Shown: positions 2,838-32,295 of the stretch, one piece after another
How positions within the stretch are numbered: position 1 is the stretch's first letter
Layout: each line of letters begins with the position of its first letter
NCBI GenBank assembly: GCA_035636135.1
Contig: DASPZT010000093.1
Span: 1-37,624 of the forward strand
Direction: 5' to 3'
Origin: Candidatus Limnocylindria bacterium
Lineage (GTDB): Bacteria > Chloroflexota > Dormibacteria > CF-121
DNA length: 37,624 nucleotides
Translations under genes and position numbers: made by a program
Notes under the pieces: model-generated
Told to the model about the DNA's origin: nothing
Database searches by the model: none
The model's input: the letters and a program-made list of their open reading frames with translations, nothing else

Positions 2838-3050
2838 CTTCAGCCCGCACTTCGCCCCAGGCCGAATCCACCGGCTCGAGCTCGCATCTCGGGCGCGGAT
2901 GCGGCCTGAGCCCGAGGCTCCGGGCGTCGTCTTCTGCGCGCGGTCGGTCACGCACCGACGGGTGCGCTCCCTCCCGTGCTCGTCGCCTCCTGCGGCTCGG
3001 CGCGCCCCGCATCCCGCTCTGCTTCGCCCGACCGGTGGATCCGGCCTTAA
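2838..3050. repeat. MITE/REP-like palindromic intergenic element, copy B (~210 bp)
   Basis: Same core as copy A, in direct orientation. Its own TIRs are aggccgaatccaccggctcg (2859-2878) and ccgaccggtggatccggcct (3028-3047). Confidence 0.75.
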
Positions 3051-3159
3051 CGGAGAGTGGCCTCAGGGCGTAACGAGCTCGTCACAATACCAGCGGCGGC
3101 GCGACAAAAATCGCAAGCCCGCGGCCCCTTCGCAGTTGGCAGCCATAGAGGTTCGGGCG

Positions 3160-21497: not shown

Positions 21498-21800
21498 ATG
21501 GACAACGTCATTCCCTGGTCTCAGATCCATCCCAGCATCAAGTCGCGCTCGGCCTTCGTGGGGGTCGTGGTGATCGACCCCGAGCGTCAGCTCTGCCTCA
21601 GCGAGCTCGTCGACCTCGAGCCGGAAAGTCTGCGTGGGCCGGACGCGGCGGCCGGGGATCTGGTGGCCGCGGTGCAGCAGGCGGCGGCCCGGGTTGCCCA
21701 GGCCTATCGCGCCGCCCGCCGCGGCCAAGCTCCCGACGATTCCAACCCATCCCGACGGACGGCCGGCCTCCGCGTGCTCCCAGGCGGGGCCACCTCCTAA
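21498..21800 (+). CDS. Hypothetical protein (100 aa)
   Basis: ATG ORF with strongly G/C-biased third positions and no recognisable motif. It lies directly downstream of the palindrome/-10 arrangement. Confidence 0.55.
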   Translation: MDNVIPWSQIHPSIKSRSAFVGVVVIDPERQLCLSELVDLEPESLRGPDAAAGDLVAAVQQAAARVAQAYRAARRGQAPDDSNPSRRTAGLRVLPGGATS

Positions 21801-21838
21801 ACCGGACCCCCTGTTAAGCGCTGGCGGGCCGCTTATCC

Positions 21839-21870
21839 TTGACATTATCAACAGATTGTGGCAGAATACG
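21839..21870 (+). promoter_or_regulatory. Conserved ~30-nt block (GACATTAT-N7-TTGTGGC-AGAATACG), copy 1, overlapping TTGACA-17-CAGAAT
   Basis: gacattatcaacagattgtggc--agaatacg (21841-21870) compares with gacattatagaaggttgtggctgggaatacg (26941-26971). TTGACA at 21839-44 lies 17 nt from CAGAAT at 21862-67. Confidence 0.45.
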
Positions 21871-22070
21871 ACCAGCGCGACATCGAGAAGGCGGCGAGAG
21901 AACAGGGATTCCGCATTGGGCGAACCAAGAAGGGTCATCCGGTTTTCTATCCCCCGGATCCCAGAATGGGGCCAGTCTTCGGATCTGGCACGCCCTCGGA
22001 CGTGCGCTCGGTGAGGAATCTCCTCGCCAAGCTTCGCCAGGCAGGACTGGTGTGGCCACCAGGGAGGTGA
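21858..22070 (+). CDS. HicA-like (YcfA family) small protein, putative mRNA-interferase toxin
   Basis: 70 aa. ...EQGFRIGRTKKGHPVFYPP...GTPSDVRSVRNLLAKLRQAGLVW follows the HicA layout (G[FW]-x-x-x-R-x-x-GSH ... L-x-x-I-L-K-Q-A-G-L). GTG start. Noticeably more A/T-ending codons than neighbours. Confidence 0.5.
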   Translation: MAEYDQRDIEKAAREQGFRIGRTKKGHPVFYPPDPRMGPVFGSGTPSDVRSVRNLLAKLRQAGLVWPPGR

Positions 22071-22075
22071 CAGGG

Positions 22076-22558
22076 ATGACGGAGTGGAGCGTCGATATCG
22101 AGGCCGTGTCGAAAGAACGCCTTGACGAGGATTTTGCCGACGCCGTTCTTGAGGAACTCGCTCCGCATGCCCCCGCCCTGAGCATCAGCGCCAATCGGCT
22201 CGAGGCACGCTTCAGCGTTGACGCACCCTCCGCATCCCAGGCGTTTGCTCAGGCGCTCAAGCTTTTCAAGAACGCCGTGCCGGGAGCAGAGGTTGTTCGC
22301 GCACAGATCGAGACCGCCGAAGAACTCGACCGGGCGCTCGCCGCGTCCAACGTGCCCGATCTCATCGGGGTCGCCGAGTTAGCCGATCTTTTGACTGTCT
22401 CGCGCCAGCGCGCTTCGGAACTGGCGCGCATCCGCGGGTTCCCTAAGCCCTGGGTCGTCCTCAAAGCCGGTCCCGTGTGGAAACGATCCAGCGTCGCGAG
22501 ATTTGTCAGTGATTGGGCGCGCCAGCCCGGCCGGCCTCGGCGTTCCGTCGCCGTTTAA
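22076..22558 (+). CDS. HicB-like / excisionase-type HTH DNA-binding protein (putative antitoxin)
   Basis: ATG at 22076 follows aGGGAGG (22061-67), 5 nt after the HicA-like stop. C-terminal LIGVAELADLLTVSRQRASELARIRGFPKPWVVLKAGPVWKRSSVARFV is an HTH_17/Xis-like motif. The N-terminal ~85 aa form a small alpha/beta domain. Confidence 0.6.
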   Translation: MTEWSVDIEAVSKERLDEDFADAVLEELAPHAPALSISANRLEARFSVDAPSASQAFAQALKLFKNAVPGAEVVRAQIETAEELDRALAASNVPDLIGVAELADLLTVSRQRASELARIRGFPKPWVVLKAGPVWKRSSVARFVSDWARQPGRPRRSVAV

Positions 22559-22566
22559 GAAGCGGG

Positions 22567-25500
22567 CTAGGCGCTGACCTCTTCGTTGGCGACATCGGCC
22601 TGATCGCCGTTGCGGCTGGGGTCGGGCGGTGTCTGTGGCGAGGTGACCGACGGGCCCGGCAGCCGGATGATCGTCCAGTTCCCGGCCCGCTCACCCCGTT
22701 CGGCAAGGGTTTCATCCTTCGAGAAGAGCAGGATCTGGTGCTCCTGTCCGAGCCGCCCCAGCTCGTCCAGCGCCGCCTTCATTCGCCGGCGGTCGGCGTG
22801 CACCAGGGCCTCGTCCAGGAGTAGCGGCAGCGACTCGGTGCTGCCACTGATGATGCGGGCCAGGGCGACCCGCTGCAGCAGGTAAATCAGCGACCGGGTA
22901 CCCATGCTGAGGTGGTCCACATCCTTGAAGGCGCGATGATCCTGCGTGCGCACCTGCAGGCCAAGGTCGTCCATCACCTGGACTTCTCGGTAGCGCCCGT
23001 TGGTGATGGGTGCCAGCTGGCTCTGCAGCTGGGCCTTCATCTGCGGGATCACGGCTCGCCGCACCGACTTGGCGGCTTCCTCCAGGGTATCGATCGCCAG
23101 GTCGTAGGCATGGGCCTGCGCCTCCAGCTCCTGCAGCTGCTCCTGGACGGTCACCATCTCCTCCTCCAGCGAGGCGACGTCACCGATCTGGAGCAACCGG
23201 TCATTCAAGAGCTCTTCCGCTCGGGCACGCTCCTCCTGCGCTCGCTCTTTGGACGCCCGATGCTGATCCAGCTGGCGCTCGAGATCCGCCAGCGGAACCG
23301 CTCGGTATGGCTCCAGGCTGCCGGCAGCCAGGCCCTGCTGGGCTTGCTGCGACTGCCCTTCCAGCTCGCCCACCAGCTTGGCCAGTCCGGCCGTGTCCTG
23401 GTCGCCCGCTACGGCAATCTGCGAGTCGCGGAGCTCTTTGAGCCTGGCTGTGGAGGTGACGTAGGTGTCGACATGGGCCACGGCGTCATCCCAGCGCCGG
23501 GCCGACGCCTCGGGATCGGCGTCGGTGATCCCCGCGGGTCGATAGATGGCCTCCAGCTTGGCTCGGTATTGGGTGGCCTTCTCGTGCTCGGCCATGGCCC
23601 GGTCCGCCGGCTGCCGCAGCTGGTCGAGTTGCGCCTCCAGCTGCTGGATCCGGGTGCGCAGCTGCTGCGCGGCGCGTCCCGCCTCGCAGGCTCCCAGGAA
23701 ATCCTGACCGGCCGCCAGCGCTTCCCGCCGATCGAAGCCCAGCCGGTCCAGGACCCCATGCAGCCGCTGCCGGAGGGTTTCCCGCCGGTCGTCGAGCGCC
23801 TTCTCGGTTCGGGTGGCCTCTTCCCAGCGCAGCTGGGCGGCCTTCCAGGCGGCATCATCATCCGCCAGGGACTGCATCAGCTGGGCGGTTCCTTCCAGCG
23901 CGCCCTCGGTGGGTGCCGGCTGGGAAAGGCCCCAGCTGCCGATCAGCTCGCGCAAGGTGCGGCCGGCGGCGCGAGACCGTTCCTCGAGCTCCGCCGCCTG
24001 CCGGTCGAGCTCCAGGCGGGTTGCGTCGGACCGAATTCGCTGCAGGTGGTCCACCAGCGCCTGCTGCAGCTCACCGGAGCTGCGCACGCCCCACGGACCG
24101 AGAATCTCTCGACGGCGTAACCGCGCATCATCTTTGGCGCGCAGCCGCCGGTCGACCTGCCGGTTGGCCGCGCCGCGCAAGACCAGTCCCAGGATGGCCC
24201 CCAGCAGGCCCATGCCCAGCAAGAAGGCAGCCACGATAAACGCCAGCGGGCCGACACTGAGCCCGACGAACATGACCAGGAAGGCCACGGCCATCAGCAG
24301 CACGCCGACCAGCGTCACAATGCCCCAGGTCCCGTACTGGGAGCGGGAACGCTCGGCCATCGTCTCTTCGTGCCGCATCGCCTCCTCCGCCTGCTGGGCC
24401 GCCTTGATGGTCTCCGGTACCTCCTTGTAGCGAGAGACGTCCTGCTTCAGCTGCTCGAGCCGCGGGGGGAGCTCGGCCCCGGCCCGACGCCGGGCTTCGG
24501 TCGCCGCATTGCTCCGTTCCCGCCACTCCGCATAGACGCGCTGGAACTCGACGTGCCGCGACGTCCACTCGGCGCCCTGGCCGATCAGGCCCGGATGTCG
24601 ATCGGCCAGGTGCTGCACCTCGTCGGCGCCGGTGCGGGCGCGCAGGTGGGCTTCCGGCGCCTGCGCATCCATCAGACTGAGCGAGGACACCAGCTCCCGC
24701 ACCATGGGCTCTTCCTTCAGGGAGCTCGGGCTGACGCCGCGCGCGCGGGCGATCTGGCCCTGGTACTCCTGCTCGAGTTTCGCGCGCTCCGCCCCGAGCG
24801 CGGTCACTTCGGAGGCGGCCTCCGCGGCCCGGGTGGCGAATTCTCGCTCGGCTTCCTCGGTCGCCCGCCAGCGGGTGCGCAGGCCGCGCACCTCTTCGTC
24901 GCGCGCACGCGGGAAACCGGAAAAGGCGGCATGCTCGTGGAGGCGGGCATTCTCATCGGCGATCATCTGGTCGATCTGCTGCACCCGGTCCAGGCGCCGC
25001 CGGGCGTCCTCGAACCGGGCGGTCAGCACCGCCGCCTCCAGCGTCTGCACCACGGAGAGCTCGGCCTCGGTCAGGGTGGCCACCACCTCTCGCTTCTGGG
25101 CCAGCTCTTCAACCGCGCTCCGAGCCTGCCGGGCCGCGGCCAGCTGGCGTTCCAGCTCCGCCAGACGGGCGGCCAGCAGGTGCAGGGGGCCGGTTCGGCC
25201 GCGGGGGCGGCCCACCCGTTCGATCCGTTCCTGTCGCAGCCGGTCCAGGACCTTGCGGGCCGTGCGATCGGGATGGGCCGAGTCGGCCAGCGCCGTGATC
25301 GCTTCCCGGATCGCCCCCGAGTCCTCGATCCGCATGACTTCCGCTCGCGAGATGCAGGCCGTGCCCGTGAAGATGTCCTTGGGGATCCCCAGGATGCGCC
25401 GCCCCAGGGACCCGGTCTCGCCGTCGGTCAAGAAATGCGCCGTCATGTCCTCGCCGGTCTCCAGATCCTGTACGCCGACGGTCTCGCCATCGAAGTCGCG

Positions 25501-25776
25501 GTCCACCCGCAGCCGGCGGCCATCGTCCAGCTCGAACTCCAGCGCCAGCCGAAAGGCGCTGTCGTGCCACGGCCGCCACCGCTCCACGGCCGCCGCGGCG
25601 GCGGGGCCGCGCGTCTTTTCCGACTGGAAGCCATACAGGCCGGTGAGGATGGCTTCCTGCAACGTGGACTTGCCGGCCTCGTTGGGCCCGATCACCAGGT
25701 TCATCCCTTTGCCGAAACGCAAGTCGGTGGCGCGCAGCACGCCGAAGCCATCGACCTGGATGCGCGTCAGCTGCAT
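22567..25776 (-). CDS. Rad50/SbcC-like SMC-type ATPase (YhaN/AAA_27-like) with a central two-helix membrane hairpin
   Basis: Walker A GPNEAGKST, signature LSMGTRSLIYLLQRVALA and Walker B LPLLLDEALVHAD, with long Ala/Glu/Arg/Leu-rich coiled-coil arms. Residues ~484-533 (WGIVTLVGVLLMAVAFLVMFVGL / PLAFIVAAFLLGMGLLGAILGLVL) are hydrophobic; nt 24178-24327. Confidence 0.9.
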   Translation of the reverse strand: MQLTRIQVDGFGVLRATDLRFGKGMNLVIGPNEAGKSTLQEAILTGLYGFQSEKTRGPAAAAAVERWRPWHDSAFRLALEFELDDGRRLRVDRDFDGETVGVQDLETGEDMTAHFLTDGETGSLGRRILGIPKDIFTGTACISRAEVMRIEDSGAIREAITALADSAHPDRTARKVLDRLRQERIERVGRPRGRTGPLHLLAARLAELERQLAAARQARSAVEELAQKREVVATLTEAELSVVQTLEAAVLTARFEDARRRLDRVQQIDQMIADENARLHEHAAFSGFPRARDEEVRGLRTRWRATEEAEREFATRAAEAASEVTALGAERAKLEQEYQGQIARARGVSPSSLKEEPMVRELVSSLSLMDAQAPEAHLRARTGADEVQHLADRHPGLIGQGAEWTSRHVEFQRVYAEWRERSNAATEARRRAGAELPPRLEQLKQDVSRYKEVPETIKAAQQAEEAMRHEETMAERSRSQYGTWGIVTLVGVLLMAVAFLVMFVGLSVGPLAFIVAAFLLGMGLLGAILGLVLRGAANRQVDRRLRAKDDARLRRREILGPWGVRSSGELQQALVDHLQRIRSDATRLELDRQAAELEERSRAAGRTLRELIGSWGLSQPAPTEGALEGTAQLMQSLADDDAAWKAAQLRWEEATRTEKALDDRRETLRQRLHGVLDRLGFDRREALAAGQDFLGACEAGRAAQQLRTRIQQLEAQLDQLRQPADRAMAEHEKATQYRAKLEAIYRPAGITDADPEASARRWDDAVAHVDTYVTSTARLKELRDSQIAVAGDQDTAGLAKLVGELEGQSQQAQQGLAAGSLEPYRAVPLADLERQLDQHRASKERAQEERARAEELLNDRLLQIGDVASLEEEMVTVQEQLQELEAQAHAYDLAIDTLEEAAKSVRRAVIPQMKAQLQSQLAPITNGRYREVQVMDDLGLQVRTQDHRAFKDVDHLSMGTRSLIYLLQRVALARIISGSTESLPLLLDEALVHADRRRMKAALDELGRLGQEHQILLFSKDETLAERGERAGNWTIIRLPGPSVTSPQTPPDPSRNGDQADVANEEVSA

Positions 25777-25800
25777 GCTAAGCCCGGATCCACGCTAGGC

Positions 25801-26892
25801 TCATGGCTCGAAGGCATCCAGGGCCAGCTGGAGGGCGCGGCCGACCGTCTCATCTTTTTCCGCGTCGCCCCGATGGGCCTGGAGCTGCCGAACCATCTCT
25901 CCTCGGCTCGTGAATTCGCTGCCCACCGCCTCCAGGTCGTGGATCCGCCGCGTTTCGTCCAGGAATTCCAGGTGCGCGAACCCGTCATTGCACTCCAGGG
26001 CCAGCGCCCGCGGATCCAGGTCTAGCGACTGGGTTCGTTCGCCAACCAGTCGGGTGCGCAGGACGGCGCCGTCCAGGTGCCGGCTCTCGCGGGCGGCCAG
26101 CACCGCATCGCGCACCTGTTCCCGGCTGGTCATACCAGTCACGTCCAGGGTCTCCTCCACAAAGCGGCGGTGATTGATGTCCTGCAAGTCGACCGACACA
26201 TTGCGGTCATCGCCGACCGTGACCAGGGCCACGCAGTGACGGCCGGTCTCGTCCCATCCCAGCGGCTCCGGGCTTCCTGGATAGGTCAGCAATCCCTGGC
26301 TCATGGCGTTGTGGTAATGGCCGAGGAGCGCCTGGCGAAAACCCGCCCGCTCGACCTGGGCTTGCACGATGGGCGCCACCGGCGTGACGCCGTCGGGGAC
26401 CGTATGCATGTCCGAGGCGTGCAGCAGGAGCAGGTGGGCGCCATCGCCCAGCGACGGCGTGGCCGCCAGCGGGGTCTCGGAGGTGTTGGCCGGATTGAAG
26501 CCCGCCGCCCAGACGCTGACGCCGCCATAGACGTAGGGGCGAAGGTCCTCATGGGTGGCCACGGTGACATTGGCGGGCCAGCGTAGATATCGATACGGGG
26601 AGCTGGCGGTGGCCGGGTCGCTATGCCCGGGCGCGATCAACACCGGTCGAGAGGTTTGCCCCAGCGTTTGGGCCAGGAAGAGGGCGGTCTCCCGGGTGAT
26701 GTGATCATGTTCGAACAGATCACCGGCGCAGGTGATTAGATCCACCTGCTCGTGATCGGCCCGTTCGAGAATTCGCTGCAGCGCGGCCCGGAGGTCTTCG
26801 CGTCGCCGCTGTGCCGCGACCCCGAAGAGTCGCTGCGGAGCAAAGGATCGGTCGAGATGCAGGTCGGCGAAATGGAGCAGGCGAAGGGCCAA
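25801..26892 (-). CDS. Mre11/SbcD-like metallophosphoesterase nuclease (YhaO-like)
   Basis: LLHFADLHLD, CAGDLFEH, LLLHASD and LGHYHNA phosphoesterase motifs. It lies 24 nt upstream of the ATPase gene on the same strand. Confidence 0.9.
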   Translation of the reverse strand: MALRLLHFADLHLDRSFAPQRLFGVAAQRRREDLRAALQRILERADHEQVDLITCAGDLFEHDHITRETALFLAQTLGQTSRPVLIAPGHSDPATASSPYRYLRWPANVTVATHEDLRPYVYGGVSVWAAGFNPANTSETPLAATPSLGDGAHLLLLHASDMHTVPDGVTPVAPIVQAQVERAGFRQALLGHYHNAMSQGLLTYPGSPEPLGWDETGRHCVALVTVGDDRNVSVDLQDINHRRFVEETLDVTGMTSREQVRDAVLAARESRHLDGAVLRTRLVGERTQSLDLDPRALALECNDGFAHLEFLDETRRIHDLEAVGSEFTSRGEMVRQLQAHRGDAEKDETVGRALQLALDAFEP

Positions 26893-26940
26893 AGATCTCC
26901 CGCAAAGGCGAATTGCCGAGAAATTCGGTTCGAGGTTGCC

Positions 26941-26971
26941 GACATTATAGAAGGTTGTGGCTGGGAATACG
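26941..26971 (+). promoter_or_regulatory. Conserved ~30-nt block, copy 2, in the divergent nuclease/WYL intergenic region
   Basis: See 21839..21870. On the minus strand the block contains a perfect TATAAT (26949..26944), 52 nt upstream of the nuclease start. A CGAATT-N7-AATTCG inverted repeat lies at 26909-26927 and GTGACAGG at 26993-27000. Confidence 0.45.
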
Positions 26972-27003
26972 GTGTCCGCGTGAGTCCGTTAACGTGACAG
27001 GTC

Positions 27004-28068
27004 ATGGGGTCGTTTGAGAAGGGGGACCGGGGGGCTCGCATCCTCAAGATGCAGACCCTCTTGCAGGGCAACCCTCGCGGGCTGACTCGCGCGGAGCTGG
27101 CGCGCCGGACGGGGGTCACGGTTCGGACCACCTACCGTGACGTGCGGGCGCTGGAGGCGATGAACGTTCCCGTCTACGAGGAGGGCGGGCGGATCCTCAT
27201 CGATCCCAACTATTTCGTCGCCCCTGTGAAATTCACGCTGGGCGAGGCGATGGCCCTCCTCATCGGTGTCCGCCTGTGGTCGCGATACACGGATGAGGCC
27301 GACCCGGACGCCGCCGACGCGTTCAGCAAGCTGGCCGCCGTGCTCCCGGCACCGGTAGCCGAGTACGTGCACGCCACCGTCGCCCAAATGCTGAAACGCC
27401 CGGCCAACCCGGGCTACTCGCGTACCGTGCAAACCTTGGCCCTGGCGTGGGCCGGCCGCCGGGTGGCGCGCATCTGGTACCGGGCGGCCGAGGCCGACGC
27501 GCCGCCGCGGCTGATCGAGCCCTACTTTCTCGAGCCCTCCCAGATCGGCCACAGCCTCTACGTGGTGGCCCGGGATCGCGGCGTTGGCGAAATGCGCACG
27601 TTCAAGGTCGAGCGCATCGCTCGGGCGGAACTCACGGCCGACACCTATCAGATCCCACCCGACTTCGACATCAACACCTACCTGTCGCGGGCCTGGGGCA
27701 TCTTCCATTCCGGTGAGCCCGTGGAAGTCCGCCTCCGCTTCTTTCCGCCTGCCGTGGCCCGCGTCACGGAGTCGACCTGGCATCCGTCCCAGCGCCTCCG
27801 TCCGCTGTCCGATGGAACGTTGGAAATGAGCGTGACCGTGGCGGGGACGGTCGAGATCACGCCCTGGATCCTTGGCTGGGGCGAGACCGTCGAGGTGTTG
27901 GAACCACCGGACCTGCGCCTGCGCATCGTCGAAATCGGCCGCGCTCTGGCGGAGCGCCACGCCGGTGTGGGCCGCGTCCAACCGGCCAACGGCGAGACCG
28001 GTGCCCGGCCCCCGGCCGTCGGGCGGGCCGTTACAGCTCGTAGCGGGCGTGCGCCGCGGCATAGCTAG
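27004..28068 (+). CDS. HTH-WYL-WCX transcriptional regulator (PafBC/DriD/YafY-like)
   Basis: N-terminal LTRAELARRTGVTVRTTYRDVRALEAMNVPVYEE (HTH_11/DeoR-type). WYL domain RIWYRAAEADAPPRLIEPYFLEPSQIGHSLYVVARDRGVGEMRTFKVERI. C-terminal extension ending VEVLEPPDLR. Confidence 0.85.
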   Translation: MGSFEKGDRGARILKMQTLLQGNPRGLTRAELARRTGVTVRTTYRDVRALEAMNVPVYEEGGRILIDPNYFVAPVKFTLGEAMALLIGVRLWSRYTDEADPDAADAFSKLAAVLPAPVAEYVHATVAQMLKRPANPGYSRTVQTLALAWAGRRVARIWYRAAEADAPPRLIEPYFLEPSQIGHSLYVVARDRGVGEMRTFKVERIARAELTADTYQIPPDFDINTYLSRAWGIFHSGEPVEVRLRFFPPAVARVTESTWHPSQRLRPLSDGTLEMSVTVAGTVEITPWILGWGETVEVLEPPDLRLRIVEIGRALAERHAGVGRVQPANGETGARPPAVGRAVTARSGRAPRHS

Positions 28069-29563: not shown

Positions 29564-30310
29564 CTACGCGGCTTGGAGAATACGGGGCTCGAGATCCTCG
29601 GGGCGCAGGCAGGTGGAGAGAGCATGCGCGATGACTTCCGGATGCAGGTCGAGGCCTCGCTGGAACGGATGCACGCTCAATATCACCGGGATGGAGCGCC
29701 CGTCGAAGTGGTAGGCGAGCGTTTTGCCATGCAGCTGCTCGATCGGGCGCCAAGCCTTCCACCCGCTGATGGCACGCTGCCAGAAGTAGGCGGCCGTCGT
29801 CCCGCCCATGGCCACGATTGCCTGGGGGGCGACCCGTTTCACGATCGGCTCGAGGTGCCGGGTCACGCATTGGGTGAGCGCGGGGTCGGTGACCCGATCG
29901 GGATTCCCAGTCGGGCAGCGGACTGCCCAGGTGTGGAAGGCAAAATCCAGGGCGTCGCGCTTCGCGTGCGGCAGGCTTAATCGCTCCCGCAATCCGGCGA
30001 AGACTCTCTGGCTGAACTGGAAATAGGGCTGGACCACTTCCCACCGGAACTGGTGTTCCAGGTTCGACTCGCGCTCCAGCCAGGCTTCGAAGGCGGCGTC
30101 GGAGGCGCTTTCCGGATCAATGGGGCTGGGACTGAGGAAGAGCAGGGGACCGTGCGGGTTGCCGAAGCCGAGCTGCGGGCGGCGATCGAGCCTGGCCAGC
30201 TGCTGGCACGGGCTCTGGGCACCCTTGGCCGCTTCGGTGGCCGCGCACTCGTGGAGAAGCTGCAGGGGTTGGGATCCGAAGAATTGGAGGTGTTGGGGGG
30301 CTCTGCTCAT
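29564..30310 (-). CDS. Uracil-DNA-glycosylase-superfamily-like protein with atypical motifs
   Basis: GNPHGPLLFLSPSP sits where UDG motif A (GxxPG-type) is expected, and SVHPFQRG where motif B (HPS/HPA-type) is expected. Start taken at ATG 30310 (MSRAPQHL). Confidence 0.55.
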   Translation of the reverse strand: MSRAPQHLQFFGSQPLQLLHECAATEAAKGAQSPCQQLARLDRRPQLGFGNPHGPLLFLSPSPIDPESASDAAFEAWLERESNLEHQFRWEVVQPYFQFSQRVFAGLRERLSLPHAKRDALDFAFHTWAVRCPTGNPDRVTDPALTQCVTRHLEPIVKRVAPQAIVAMGGTTAAYFWQRAISGWKAWRPIEQLHGKTLAYHFDGRSIPVILSVHPFQRGLDLHPEVIAHALSTCLRPEDLEPRILQAA

Positions 30311-30378
30311 GCTAGGTGGTTCGACGCACCCGGCGACCCCATCCTTGCGCTGGCGCGGTCGGTCCGTACGATTGGAGC

Positions 30379-30732
30379 ATGCCCAGACCCGGCGCAGCCG
30401 CATCCCCGCCACCGCCCCAGGTGCCGGGCATCGACGTCGTCGAAGCCCGGCGCCGGCTCCAGGGAGAGCGGCCTCCGTACGTCCTCGACGTTCGCGAGCC
30501 CTGGGAGTACCTGGCCGGCCATCTTCCCGGCGCCGTCCTGGTGCCGCTGGGCGAACTCGACCGCCGCCTCGCCGAAGTACCGAGAGACCGGCCGGTGCTG
30601 GCGGTCTGCCACAGCGGCAGCCGAAGCTGGACGGCCGCGGCCTTTCTCCTGGCGTCCGGTTATCCGGACGTCACCAACGTCGATGGCGGAACCGCCGCCT
30701 GGATAGAGAAGGGGTATCCCACAGACCGGTAG
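30379..30732 (+). CDS. Single-domain rhodanese sulfurtransferase
   Basis: YVLDVREPWEYLAGHLPGAV and active-site loop CHSGSRS. ATG at 30379 is preferred over the upstream GTG at 30316. Confidence 0.8.
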   Translation: MPRPGAAASPPPPQVPGIDVVEARRRLQGERPPYVLDVREPWEYLAGHLPGAVLVPLGELDRRLAEVPRDRPVLAVCHSGSRSWTAAAFLLASGYPDVTNVDGGTAAWIEKGYPTDR

Positions 30733-30771: not shown

Positions 30772-31017
30772 TTAGCTCCCGACCTTTAGCTGGGTGGCGT
30801 CGAAGATCAGTACCCGGCCGGCCACCACGCTGCTGGCCAGGCCCTTCCAGGCCTCGGGGTCCACTACCCAGGCGCGGGCCACGACGATGTCCGGGCCCTC
30901 GAGGATCATCCGGGTTCCGTTGCTGGAAACCTCCACTGGGGAGAGTTGCAGCGCCTTGACTTTCTCGATGGCAAGACCCTCTGCCAGGATCGTTCGCTCA
31001 ATTTCCACCCGTGCCAC
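30772..31017 (-). CDS. Small protein of unknown family (paralogue of 19835..20110)
   Basis: 81 aa with an ATG start and GC3-rich frame. It shares the AxxxV[KR]ALQ...VVARAWVVDPEAW pattern with the other copy and is divergent from rmuC. Confidence 0.55.
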   Translation of the reverse strand: MARVEIERTILAEGLAIEKVKALQLSPVEVSSNGTRMILEGPDIVVARAWVVDPEAWKGLASSVVAGRVLIFDATQLKVGS

Positions 31018-31074
31018 TTACGTGAGCCCCAATATGCCGGATTCGGCACCCAACCGCAACCAAGGGCCTCGGCC

Positions 31075-31131
31075 GTGACAGGCAGCTGTCACGACGCCCT
31101 GCTTGACTTTCGCCATGCGTCACGACAGGAT
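31075..31131 (+). promoter_or_regulatory. Second copy of the GTGACAGGCAGCTGTCA(C) palindrome followed by TTGACT-17-CAGGAT
   Basis: Palindrome at 31075-31092 (7-bp arms, 4-nt spacer). TTGACT at 31103-08 and CAGGAT at 31126-31. GAAGGAG at 31162-68 and GTG start at 31174. Confidence 0.45.
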
Positions 31132-31173
31132 GGACCGCAATACCGGTCCCGCCCACGTCTTGAAGGAGTCGCA

Positions 31174-32295
31174 GTGAACGTCATAGATCTGGTCCTGCTG
31201 GGCGTCGCCCTGGGCGCGGTGGGCCTGGCTCTCGGGTTGCTGGCTCGTGGCCGGCGGAGCACCCCGCCCGACTCCCTTCTGCGGTCGCTGGCCGACCTCG
31301 GTGGGGTGAAGGCCCAGATGGATGCCCTCACAGCCCAGCAAGTTGGGCTGACCCAGACGCTGGGCGGGCTGCAGACGGCGCTGCAGGGCGTGGAGACCCG
31401 GATCGTGCAGAGCTCGGCCGGCGTGCAGGAAACGCTGGGACGGCAAGTGCAGGAAGCGCGGGTCGCGGTCGAACGGCTAAAGGCCGACGCCATGGCCCGT
31501 CAGCGCCTCGAGGAAGAGATCCAGGCATCCTCGCGGCGAATCGAGACGGTGTTGCTGGGCAGTCGCACCCGGGGCGCCGCCGGCGAGAACATCCTGCACG
31601 ACGCGTTCAAGCAGTTTCCACCGGGCATGATCGACATGAATTTCCGGGTCAACGGGAAGGTCGTCGAGTACGCGCTCGTGCTCGCCAACGGAAAGCGGCT
31701 GCCCATCGACAGCAAGTGGCCGCTGCCCGAGCTCCTGGACCGGCTGGCTCAGGGGGACCATCCCGATGAGGCCGGCGCAGCAATCTCCGATGAGGTCGAG
31801 CGGGTGTTGAAGAATAAGATCCGGGAAGTCCGCCAGTACATCGACCCGTCCGTGACCCTGCCGTGGGCGATCGCGGCGGTCCCGGATCCCGTGTTCCAGG
31901 CGTGCCGGCGGGCCCACATCGAGGCCCACCGCGAGGGGGTGGTGCTGATGCCGTACAGCATGGCGGTGCCATTCATCCTGGCCCTGTTCCGCCTGCATCT
32001 GCAGAACTTAAGGACCGTCGATATCGAGAACCTGGAAGGGTATCTGCAGCAAATCGAAGACGGAATCACCACCCTGGATCGCTCGCTGGAGAACAGCATC
32101 TCCCGGGGCAGCACCATGATCCAGAACGCTTACACCGATTCCAAGCGAACCTTGGGCCAGATGCGCGGGGCCGTCGCCGCCCTGCGGTCGGTCCCGGACG
32201 CCAGCCTGGTGGTCGAGCACGACCAGGCCGACCTGCTGCCCATCCAGGCCGACGGTCCCGGGAATGGCGCCGGCCGACCCCGCCTCGTTTCTTAG
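31174..32295 (+). CDS. rmuC: DNA recombination protein RmuC
   Basis: N-terminal TM anchor and coiled coil, then RGAAGENILHDAF...VEYALVLANGKRLPIDSKWPL and VRQYIDPSVTLPWAIAAVPDPVF, matching the RmuC nuclease-like core. GTG at 31174 has a strong SD. Confidence 0.8.
   Translation: MNVIDLVLLGVALGAVGLALGLLARGRRSTPPDSLLRSLADLGGVKAQMDALTAQQVGLTQTLGGLQTALQGVETRIVQSSAGVQETLGRQVQEARVAVERLKADAMARQRLEEEIQASSRRIETVLLGSRTRGAAGENILHDAFKQFPPGMIDMNFRVNGKVVEYALVLANGKRLPIDSKWPLPELLDRLAQGDHPDEAGAAISDEVERVLKNKIREVRQYIDPSVTLPWAIAAVPDPVFQACRRAHIEAHREGVVLMPYSMAVPFILALFRLHLQNLRTVDIENLEGYLQQIEDGITTLDRSLENSISRGSTMIQNAYTDSKRTLGQMRGAVAALRSVPDASLVVEHDQADLLPIQADGPGNGAGRPRLVS

Follow-up and report, generated by a model that had tools for sequence, protein, structure and literature searches.

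A candidate lineage-specific, WYL-controlled SbcEF-type repair operon in Candidatus Dormibacterota and a mobile cassette alongside it

The window analysed here, a stretch of DNA of 37,624 nt (contig DASPZT010000093.1) which overlaps the JGI soil-metagenome contig 3300012189, carries in positions 21839-28068 a nuclease-ATPase operon, a divergently transcribed regulator gene of the WYL type and a pair of small genes for a HicA-like protein and a helix-turn-helix (HTH) partner (Table 1). An initial annotation had put forward these five genes as a candidate block governed by the WYL regulator, and it was this block that we put under test. All the five open reading frames (ORFs) were found where they had been placed and on the same strands, and the assignment of their products to a Rad50-like ATPase, a Mre11-like nuclease and an HTH-WYL-WCX regulator was supported by Pfam, TIGR and PDB matches. 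The region is probably a composite of two independent units, A (22567-28068) and B (~21801-22566). Taken as a whole, it most likely represents an SbcEF repair operon that is lineage-specific, WYL-controlled and induced by damage, next to which lies a mobile cassette unrelated to it.

Table 1. Features located in the region and the evidence on which each was placed
Feature	Position	Strand	Evidence or remark
Strain-variable insertion with cassette and its promoter	21801..22566	+	Alignment with L003 and L002; missing in L091 and L092
Cassette promoter-like site TTGACA-17-CAGAAT with near-palindrome TTGACATTATCAA	21839..21867	+	Overlaps HicA-like GTG start
HicA-like small protein, 70 aa (..KKGHPVF..)	21858..22070	+	PADLOC HicA-like, E 6e-6
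Partner protein, 160 aa, ferredoxin-like N-terminal domain and C-terminal HTH	22076..22558	+	PADLOC PDC-M06B, 1e-9
YhaN/SbcE-type SMC-like ATPase, 1069 aa	22567..25776	-	AAA_23 6e-15, AAA_27 3e-10; homologues named 'YhaN'
Central hydrophobic helical hairpin of the ATPase, residues 481-537, turn G508-P509	24166..24336	-	Stands where a CxxC zinc hook would
Terminal motif GGATCCGGGCTTAGC of dispersed small repeat	25777..25791	-	Fills intercistronic gap, abuts ATPase ATG
YhaO/SbcF-like (SbcD/Mre11-type) metallophosphoesterase, 363 aa, TTG start	25801..26892	-	Metallophos 4e-8, TIGR00619 sbcd 6e-12
Divergent control region between regulator gene and nuclease operon	26893..27003		37 orthologous intergenic regions aligned
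Inverted repeat CGAATT-N7-AATTCG in predicted nuclease-mRNA 5' leader	26909..26927	-	Sequence
TATAAT -10 box of nuclease-ATPase operon	26944..26949	-	Invariant in 37/37 Dormibacterota loci
HTH_11-WYL-WCX transcription factor, 354 aa	27004..28068	+	Pfam WCX 1e-18, WYL 1e-11, HTH_11 1e-8

A protein search with the ATPase returned homologues nearly all of which came from metagenome-assembled genomes (MAGs) of Candidatus Dormibacterota. Scanning genomes with an alignment of 20 ATPase homologues gave 80 loci, 39 of them belonging to Dormibacterota species representatives with ATPase identities of 59-98%. The relatives named below share with the window an ATPase identity of 99% (L083), 98% (L003), 97% (L002), 86% (L092), 83% (L086) and 82% (L091). 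An Rfam scan of the window matched zero families.

In the operon the nuclease gene lies directly upstream of the ATPase gene with a gap of 24 nt, and this order was kept in the related loci. The ATPase has a Rad50-like N-terminus that matched Rad50 head structures in a search of solved structures; its AAA_23 and AAA_27 domains scored 56.9 and 40.6 bits (cut-off 22 for the latter), and the GPNEAGKST and LLLDEA sequences of its split ABC head were invariant in 20 homologues. The hydrophobic hairpin that had been claimed for this protein is present: in the AlphaFold model (mean predicted local distance difference test score, pLDDT, of 71) near-continuous helices extend over residues 197-924, and the hairpin is formed by helices 453-508 and 511-562, which meet at the glycine-proline turn at the apex of the coiled coil. 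A CxxC hook was looked for in the ATPase and was absent. The hairpin is probably inserted in the membrane. A central hydrophobic stretch occurred in nearly all full-length family members sampled from six or more phyla, its carriers including Clostridiaceae, Desulfuromonadales, Actinomycetota, Planctomycetota, Chloroflexota and a Dormibacterota paralogue. SbcE (YhaN) has been described to possess a 'unique central domain' which is hydrophobic and insoluble and has a conserved proline and no CxxC (PMC2811018). The hairpin corresponds to this domain and is a hallmark of the YhaN/SbcE family rather than a local novelty. The membrane-tethered Rad50/Mre11 machine, which the initial annotation had regarded as undescribed, belongs to the YhaN/SbcE-YhaO/SbcF family of Bacillus, whose hydrophobic domain was already on record. 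In B. subtilis SbcE/SbcF is a double-strand-break (DSB) repair and competence factor (PMC2811018), and yhaONM is listed in the LexA/SOS regulon, with ~8.7-fold induction by H2O2 in B. pumilus (PMC3896406).

The nuclease matched SbcD structures in the search of solved structures, and its motifs I (DLH), II (GD), IV (H) and V (GHYH) were intact. Motif III (residues 88-92) reads PGHSD, and all 40 Dormibacterota orthologues conform to PG[HN][AST R]D; E. coli SbcD and most of the distant family members have GNHD or GTHD at this place. The canonical histidine is replaced and a histidine is present one position earlier. Apart from this, the YhaO-like partners at the distant loci L046, L053, L056, L060, L062 and L074, mostly Desulfuromonadales/deltaproteobacterial with one from Planctomycetota (L060), had degenerate metal-binding motifs such as LALG for DxH, GAGD or GCYD for GNHD and GGRG for GHxH. 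Their motifs suggest catalytically dead nuclease subunits beside intact ATPases.

The link between the regulator and the operon was assessed in the 32 Dormibacterota loci with at least 1.2 kb of sequence upstream of the nuclease gene, and a divergent WYL gene was found beside the operon in all of them. The distance from this trio to a uracil-DNA glycosylase (UDG)-like gene ranged from 178 to 2679 nt and that to a GGDEF gene from 1316 to 3125 nt, and the SIS gene next to the regulator was restricted to the window's clade. The trio is thus intact while both of its flanks change, which bears out the tie between the WYL regulator and the operon that had been drawn from the window alone. Of the genes that were expected to accompany the ATPase homologues, the WYL gene does co-occur and the HicA-like/HTH pair does not, 34 of the 35 related loci being without any trace of it.

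The regulator carries its HTH_11 (residues 15-63), WYL (141-209) and WCX (238-316) domains on a single chain, as delineated by Pfam. Its residues 2-15 and the RTTYRD recognition helix were invariant among the orthologues, and the ATG at 27004 is the true start. A profile search against PDB matched DriD (8tp8) at 7e-20, PafC (7p5x) at 7e-11 and PafB at 3e-7, and no match to BrxR or CapW was obtained at E<=1. In these sequence comparisons the regulator is closer to the damage regulators DriD and PafC, which sense single-stranded DNA (ssDNA), than to BrxR/CapW; of the WYL precedents cited earlier for this gene, sequence favours the damage type (PafBC, DriD) over the defence type (BrxR/CapW). Residues R204 and R207 of DriD contact ssDNA (PMC10853764), and they align with R198 and K201 of the regulator, both invariant in 20 orthologues. 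A protein search with the regulator returned Dormibacterota orthologues only and is uninformative on the linkage in other phyla.

WYL repressors guard many defence systems and sense ssDNA too (PMC11662680), and unit A might accordingly be an anti-phage or anti-plasmid defence, in which a BrxR/CapW-like repressor silences a membrane-anchored SMC-like nuclease until invader DNA or damage appears. The matches of the ATPase N-terminus to the PADLOC models mad3, LmuB, GajA and PtuA, the toxin-antitoxin (TA)-like cassette next door and the match of the regulator to the N-terminal part (positions 6-312) of the 1009-position PADLOC 'Cas3c' model (E 1e-79) speak for such a role. The PADLOC matches of the ATPase are, however, limited to the P-loop region (~45-100 residues) except for the split-head mad3 match, the nuclease has no PADLOC match, and the regulator shows no BrxR/CapW similarity at E<=1. 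Moreover, in 39 species the locus occupies a stable chromosomal position with conserved synteny and not a variable island, and the characterised member of the family is the DSB-repair and competence factor mentioned above. We consider a defence function rather improbable. Several orthologues of the regulator are labelled 'Cas3' in JGI. Some genomes evidently encode a close relative of the regulator as a fusion with Cas3, and the orthologues that stand alone under this name are probably misnamed.

The control region shared by the regulator gene and the operon has a length of 111 nt in the window and of 111-150 nt across the loci. The TATAAT box of the operon sits ~50-90 nt upstream of the nuclease start codon, which is a plausible leader length, and this promoter has no recognisable -35 and no TG extension. 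The majority clade carries an inverted repeat of 24 bp, GGCTGA-N12-TCAGCC (GGCTGAATTTATTCCGAATCAGCC), which occupies positions of about -43 to -20 and is centred near -31; outside this control region it was not found in the 1.2 Mb of sequence searched. The only palindrome recurring across clades was CGCG-N12-CGCG, located in the leader: it is present in other clades (L004-L041) in what appears to be the part corresponding to the leader repeat of the window. The leader repeats, whose arms differ between the clades, could form an RNA hairpin that is conserved in structure or serve as another site for a protein. On the opposite side, a TAGACT-like -10 lies a few bases ahead of the start codon of the regulator gene, so near that a leaderless mRNA or one with a very short leader is suggested.

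Unit B occupies an insertion of ~770 nt that is bounded by the stop codons of a conserved 100-aa ORF (21800) and of the ATPase gene (22567). At the same site L003 has a short unrelated spacer in place of both cassette genes and the promoter block, L092 and L091 lack the cassette, L002 is left with no more than the 3' half of the HTH gene, which contains an in-frame stop, and L083 and L086 carry the pair with a frameshifted HicA-like gene. The GC content at third codon positions (GC3) was 0.68 and 0.71 in the cassette genes as compared to 0.79-0.86 in their neighbours. The 100-aa ORF itself (21498-21800), situated between a methyltransferase gene and the ATPase gene, has a high GC3 and no family match and is kept in all the close relatives (L002, L003, L086, L091 and L092).

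The PADLOC HicA-like model matched the window's protein and three homologues at 6e-6 to 9e-9, and no Pfam match was found for the former. The AlphaFold model of its partner (pLDDT 90.6) consists of a ferredoxin-like beta-alpha-beta-beta-alpha-beta domain and a C-terminal HTH. The partner belongs to no Pfam family and had no PDB match in a profile search and none below E 1e-3 in a fold search; its identification as HicB was dropped, since there was no HicB among the fold or profile matches. The family of this partner comprises at least 109 proteins without a Pfam domain, from Actinomycetota, Armatimonadota and viral contigs. A metagenome scan with the 160-aa protein retrieved near-identical loci only. 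In unrelated loci the HicA-like gene is always upstream of the HTH partner: the same pair in the same order has an APH kinase gene as its neighbour in L087-L090 and different neighbours in L085, and it is present in 7 of the 8 IMG/VR viral contigs encoding the HTH partner. Around the cassette homologues in unrelated contexts there were no WYL or YhaN genes. The cassette is mobile and TA-like and not a component of the repair module, and it seems a fair presumption that one sub-lineage acquired it at the 3' end of the ATPase gene and is now losing it. The proposed wiring of a TA-like pair to the nuclease-ATPase unit does not survive the close relatives that lack it, its decayed copies and its unrelated and viral contexts. 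The fallback offered by the initial annotation, 'only a repair operon next to an unrelated TA', was essentially right, and the WYL link is real in addition.

The cassette site TTGACA-17-CAGAAT was the sole sigma-70-like promoter found in the region, and its transcript would start past the GTG of the HicA-like gene; in the homologues the start codon, ATG or GTG, comes three codons later, at a place taken by TAC in the window. It is doubtful that the toxin-like gene is expressed at all. Palindromes of the TTGAC..GTCAA type were kept in the cassette homologues L085-L089, and the near-palindrome of the window recurs, in diverged form, in homologues elsewhere (TTGACATTGTCAA, CCTTGACGTCCTCAAGG). Together the palindrome and the promoter would represent the usual autoregulatory layout.

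Common control of the two units had been proposed from a shared block of about 30 nt. Positions 21841-21870 and 26942-26971 align over GACATTAT, TTGTGGC and GAATACG with ~21 identities and two indels (local score 26), a score reached by 6 of 5000 shuffles of that pair, and each copy was the best partner of the other among the intergenic DNA of the window. As the window offers 153 intergenic pairs, the block is borderline after multiple testing. The similarity is real but weak, and its description as two outer promoters in the same sense is not correct, because the left part consists of different elements on opposite strands. In the control region it is ATTATA (26944-26949), the reverse complement of the operon's -10 box, and in the cassette it is TTGACATTATCAA (21839-21851), the -35 and near-palindrome of the cassette promoter. 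The right part, TTGTGGC..GAATACG, was not kept in relatives, the control regions of L091 and L092 having TTGCGGCCCAAAAGACG and the cassette homologues differing too, and the expected conservation of the block was thus not borne out. Since the left part represents two elements on opposite strands and the right part is unconserved, the resemblance is best read as coincidental, with a small probability left for recent convergence.

This evidence also bears on the model in which all the five genes form one WYL-governed module with the block as their common operator. The model is favoured by the mutual best match of the two copies at a score rarely reached by shuffling, and by L086, a second sub-lineage which has the cassette at the same site with the block kept. 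It is opposed by the absence of the cassette from nearly all related loci and its deletion, truncation or frameshift in the closest relatives, by the opposite-strand nature of GACATTAT, by the right part unconserved in L091/L092 and in cassette homologues elsewhere, and by the lack of WYL and YhaN genes around those homologues. With a pair that fails to co-occur and a block that is not conserved, the five-gene module is largely refuted and we regard it as hardly tenable. Very unlikely too is a variant in which, in Dormibacterota, a DriD/PafC-like WYL sensor, and not LexA, switches a membrane-anchored SbcEF complex with a remodelled motif III (GH[AS]D) and, in the window's sub-lineage, the cassette promoter convergently mimics that of the operon; the same ssDNA signal would then fire the cassette, a TA that would either live as a parasite on a response to damage or invader DNA or have been recruited into it.

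For unit A we propose, by analogy with DriD, PafBC and SiwR, that a homodimer-type winged HTH (wHTH)-WYL-WCX factor would sit on the shared 111-nt control region, sense the ssDNA produced by damage through its WYL domain and then switch on the -35-less TATAAT promoter of the operon. The outcome would be a double-strand-break processing complex that is made on demand. SiwR is a homodimeric WYL factor that activates the operon beside it from a palindrome lying between -35 and -10, in the -26 region (PMC10693628).

Several observations weigh against this proposal. No WYL ORF was found within 7 kb of ~40 distant YhaN-like loci by a hidden Markov model (HMM) built from the orthologues and by Pfam scans of upstream ORFs, the HMM being narrow enough for a very divergent WYL to escape. 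Upstream of these distant operons lay unrelated genes, for an actinobacterial YhaM-like HD/OB protein, DinB and metabolic enzymes. As WYL genes were not seen near these ~40 loci, the pairing is lineage-specific; the link is real and appears restricted to Dormibacterota. Within the phylum, the wider neighbourhood from the UDG-like gene to the GGDEF gene is syntenic too, and the adjacency could partly reflect inherited gene order and not functional coupling. The window's clade has lost GGCTGA-N12-TCAGCC via a deletion of ~28 nt, and its control region contains no obvious palindromic operator candidate. A palindrome common to all clades (4-5-nt perfect arms) was not found, though the recognition helix is invariant. 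The regulator might be an activator or a repressor, and without the canonical GNHD histidine the activity of the nuclease may differ from that of SbcD. Finally, chance alone does not fully account for the similarity of the block in the shuffling test.

Some of these points would be expected if the adjacency were inherited synteny, or if the WYL protein were a global PafBC-like damage regulator with the operon not its specific local target. Across the Dormibacterota loci the regulator is more conserved (identity 70-78%) than the ATPase (59-66%) and the nuclease (53-69%), and its recognition helix does not vary; the DNA upstream of the operon -10, on the other hand, diverges between clades and has no universal palindrome. 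The broader region is syntenic across the phylum, and DriD and PafBC control regulons besides themselves (PMC10853764). Against this, the trio was unbroken in every locus that could be counted despite insertions and losses on both sides, the majority-clade inverted repeat was confined to this control region within the sequence searched, and a divergent layout with a short shared region is that of a classic local regulator, comparable to SiwR (PMC10693628). We therefore think an inherited or global relation unlikely, and a WYL-controlled SbcEF operon together with an independent mobile cassette remains the explanation that we favour, with reasonable though not strong confidence.

Further genes of DNA metabolism lie within 4 kb of the regulator. 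The UDG-like gene (29564-30412) encodes a protein with a weak UDG-superfamily match (E 1e-3, which does not reach the Pfam cut-off) and keeps its synteny throughout the phylum, as does an RmuC-family protein gene (30946-32295) in the close relatives examined. They may form a loose DNA-metabolism gene cluster. In an Actinomycetota MAG (L054:4779-5909) the gene for a YhaM-like HD and OB-fold protein precedes the YhaO/YhaN-like pair; conservation of the Bacillus yhaONM trio thus extends in part beyond Firmicutes, with the genes in another order.

The gap between the nuclease and ATPase genes is filled by one end of a small repeat dispersed in the window. Its terminal motif (C)GGTGGATCCGGGCTTAGC had 8 matches in the window at <=3 mismatches as compared to 2.2 expected, and copies were located at 232-246, 1110-1290, ~2870-2960, 3013-3081, 12208-22, 25777-91 and 32296-345. 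The ends of a 175-nt copy (1116-1290) are inverted, and its folding energy is -112.7 kcal/mol (z -6.9); in L002 the same gap is filled by a longer copy of 126 nt. The repeat looks like a miniature inverted-repeat transposable element (MITE) or a repetitive extragenic palindromic (REP) element, confined to the window's clade. Since it was found in this clade only, it is not a conserved part of the operon.

The kinds of components brought together here, the YhaN/YhaO family, WYL damage regulators and a HicA-like cassette, are already known; a WYL factor paired with an SbcEF-type operon was not found in the open-access literature searched. A link to mycobacterial Rv1277/Rv1278 as PafBC-regulated homologues found no support in the literature searched and was not used as evidence. 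If the proposal is true, the regulator would be the third well-defined single-chain WYL factor dedicated to a neighbouring damage-response operon, after DriD and SiwR, and the first of these with a Rad50/Mre11-family machine as its target, in an uncultured soil phylum whose DNA-damage signalling was previously uncharacterised. The putative membrane hairpin in place of the Rad50 zinc hook extends to the whole YhaN/SbcE family. It received very little attention in the literature searched and is relevant to the working of these complexes, for instance in the vicinity of the DNA-uptake machinery.

Among known systems, the cassette resembles the HicAB type II TA systems in its gene order, with the gene for a small HicA-like protein bearing a GH motif ahead of that for a DNA-binding partner, and in its palindromic promoter and its mobile and patchy distribution. 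It differs in the N-terminal domain of the partner, which is ferredoxin-like and not of the HicB fold (partial RNase-H-like), and in having no Pfam HicA or HicB match. The regulator shares its domain architecture with BrxR/CapW, which also sense ssDNA (PMC11662680), but it had no match at E<=1 to the solved members and no known defence system is adjacent to it (PADLOC). Its closest solved relatives are DriD of Caulobacter crescentus and PafBC of Actinobacteria (PMC10853764, PMC12041258), both of them SOS-independent damage regulators, and the basic positions for ssDNA contact are conserved; these regulators, however, have dispersed regulons, and PafBC occurs as a heterodimer or a fusion. At the present locus the DriD box ATACGAC-N7-GTCGTAT is missing. 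The candidate GAATACGAC is only a half-site-like ATACGAC inside the cassette coding start, absent from cassette homologues, and was set aside as chance.

SiwR of Mycobacterium smegmatis (PMC10693628) is likewise a single-chain wHTH-WYL-WCX factor beside an operon. It has its palindromic operator in the -26 region, a target responsive to genotoxic stress and ssDNA binding via arginines of the WYL domain (R204/R207). It differs from the present regulator in belonging to another phylum and in having a DinB/YfiT-like gene pair as its target. For the operon the nearest counterpart is SbcE/SbcF of B. subtilis, with which it shares the combination of AAA_23 and AAA_27, a nuclease gene immediately upstream, long coiled-coil arms and a central domain that is hydrophobic, has a conserved proline and lacks a CxxC hook. 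The sequence similarity between them is only distant, the window's ATPase of 1069 aa comparing with ~700-1030 aa in the distant YhaN relatives sampled, motif III is PG[HN][AST]D as against GNHD, and the operon of the window is without a yhaM-like third gene. In Bacillus the system is under LexA control, whereas here its control, if any, would lie with the adjacent WYL factor.

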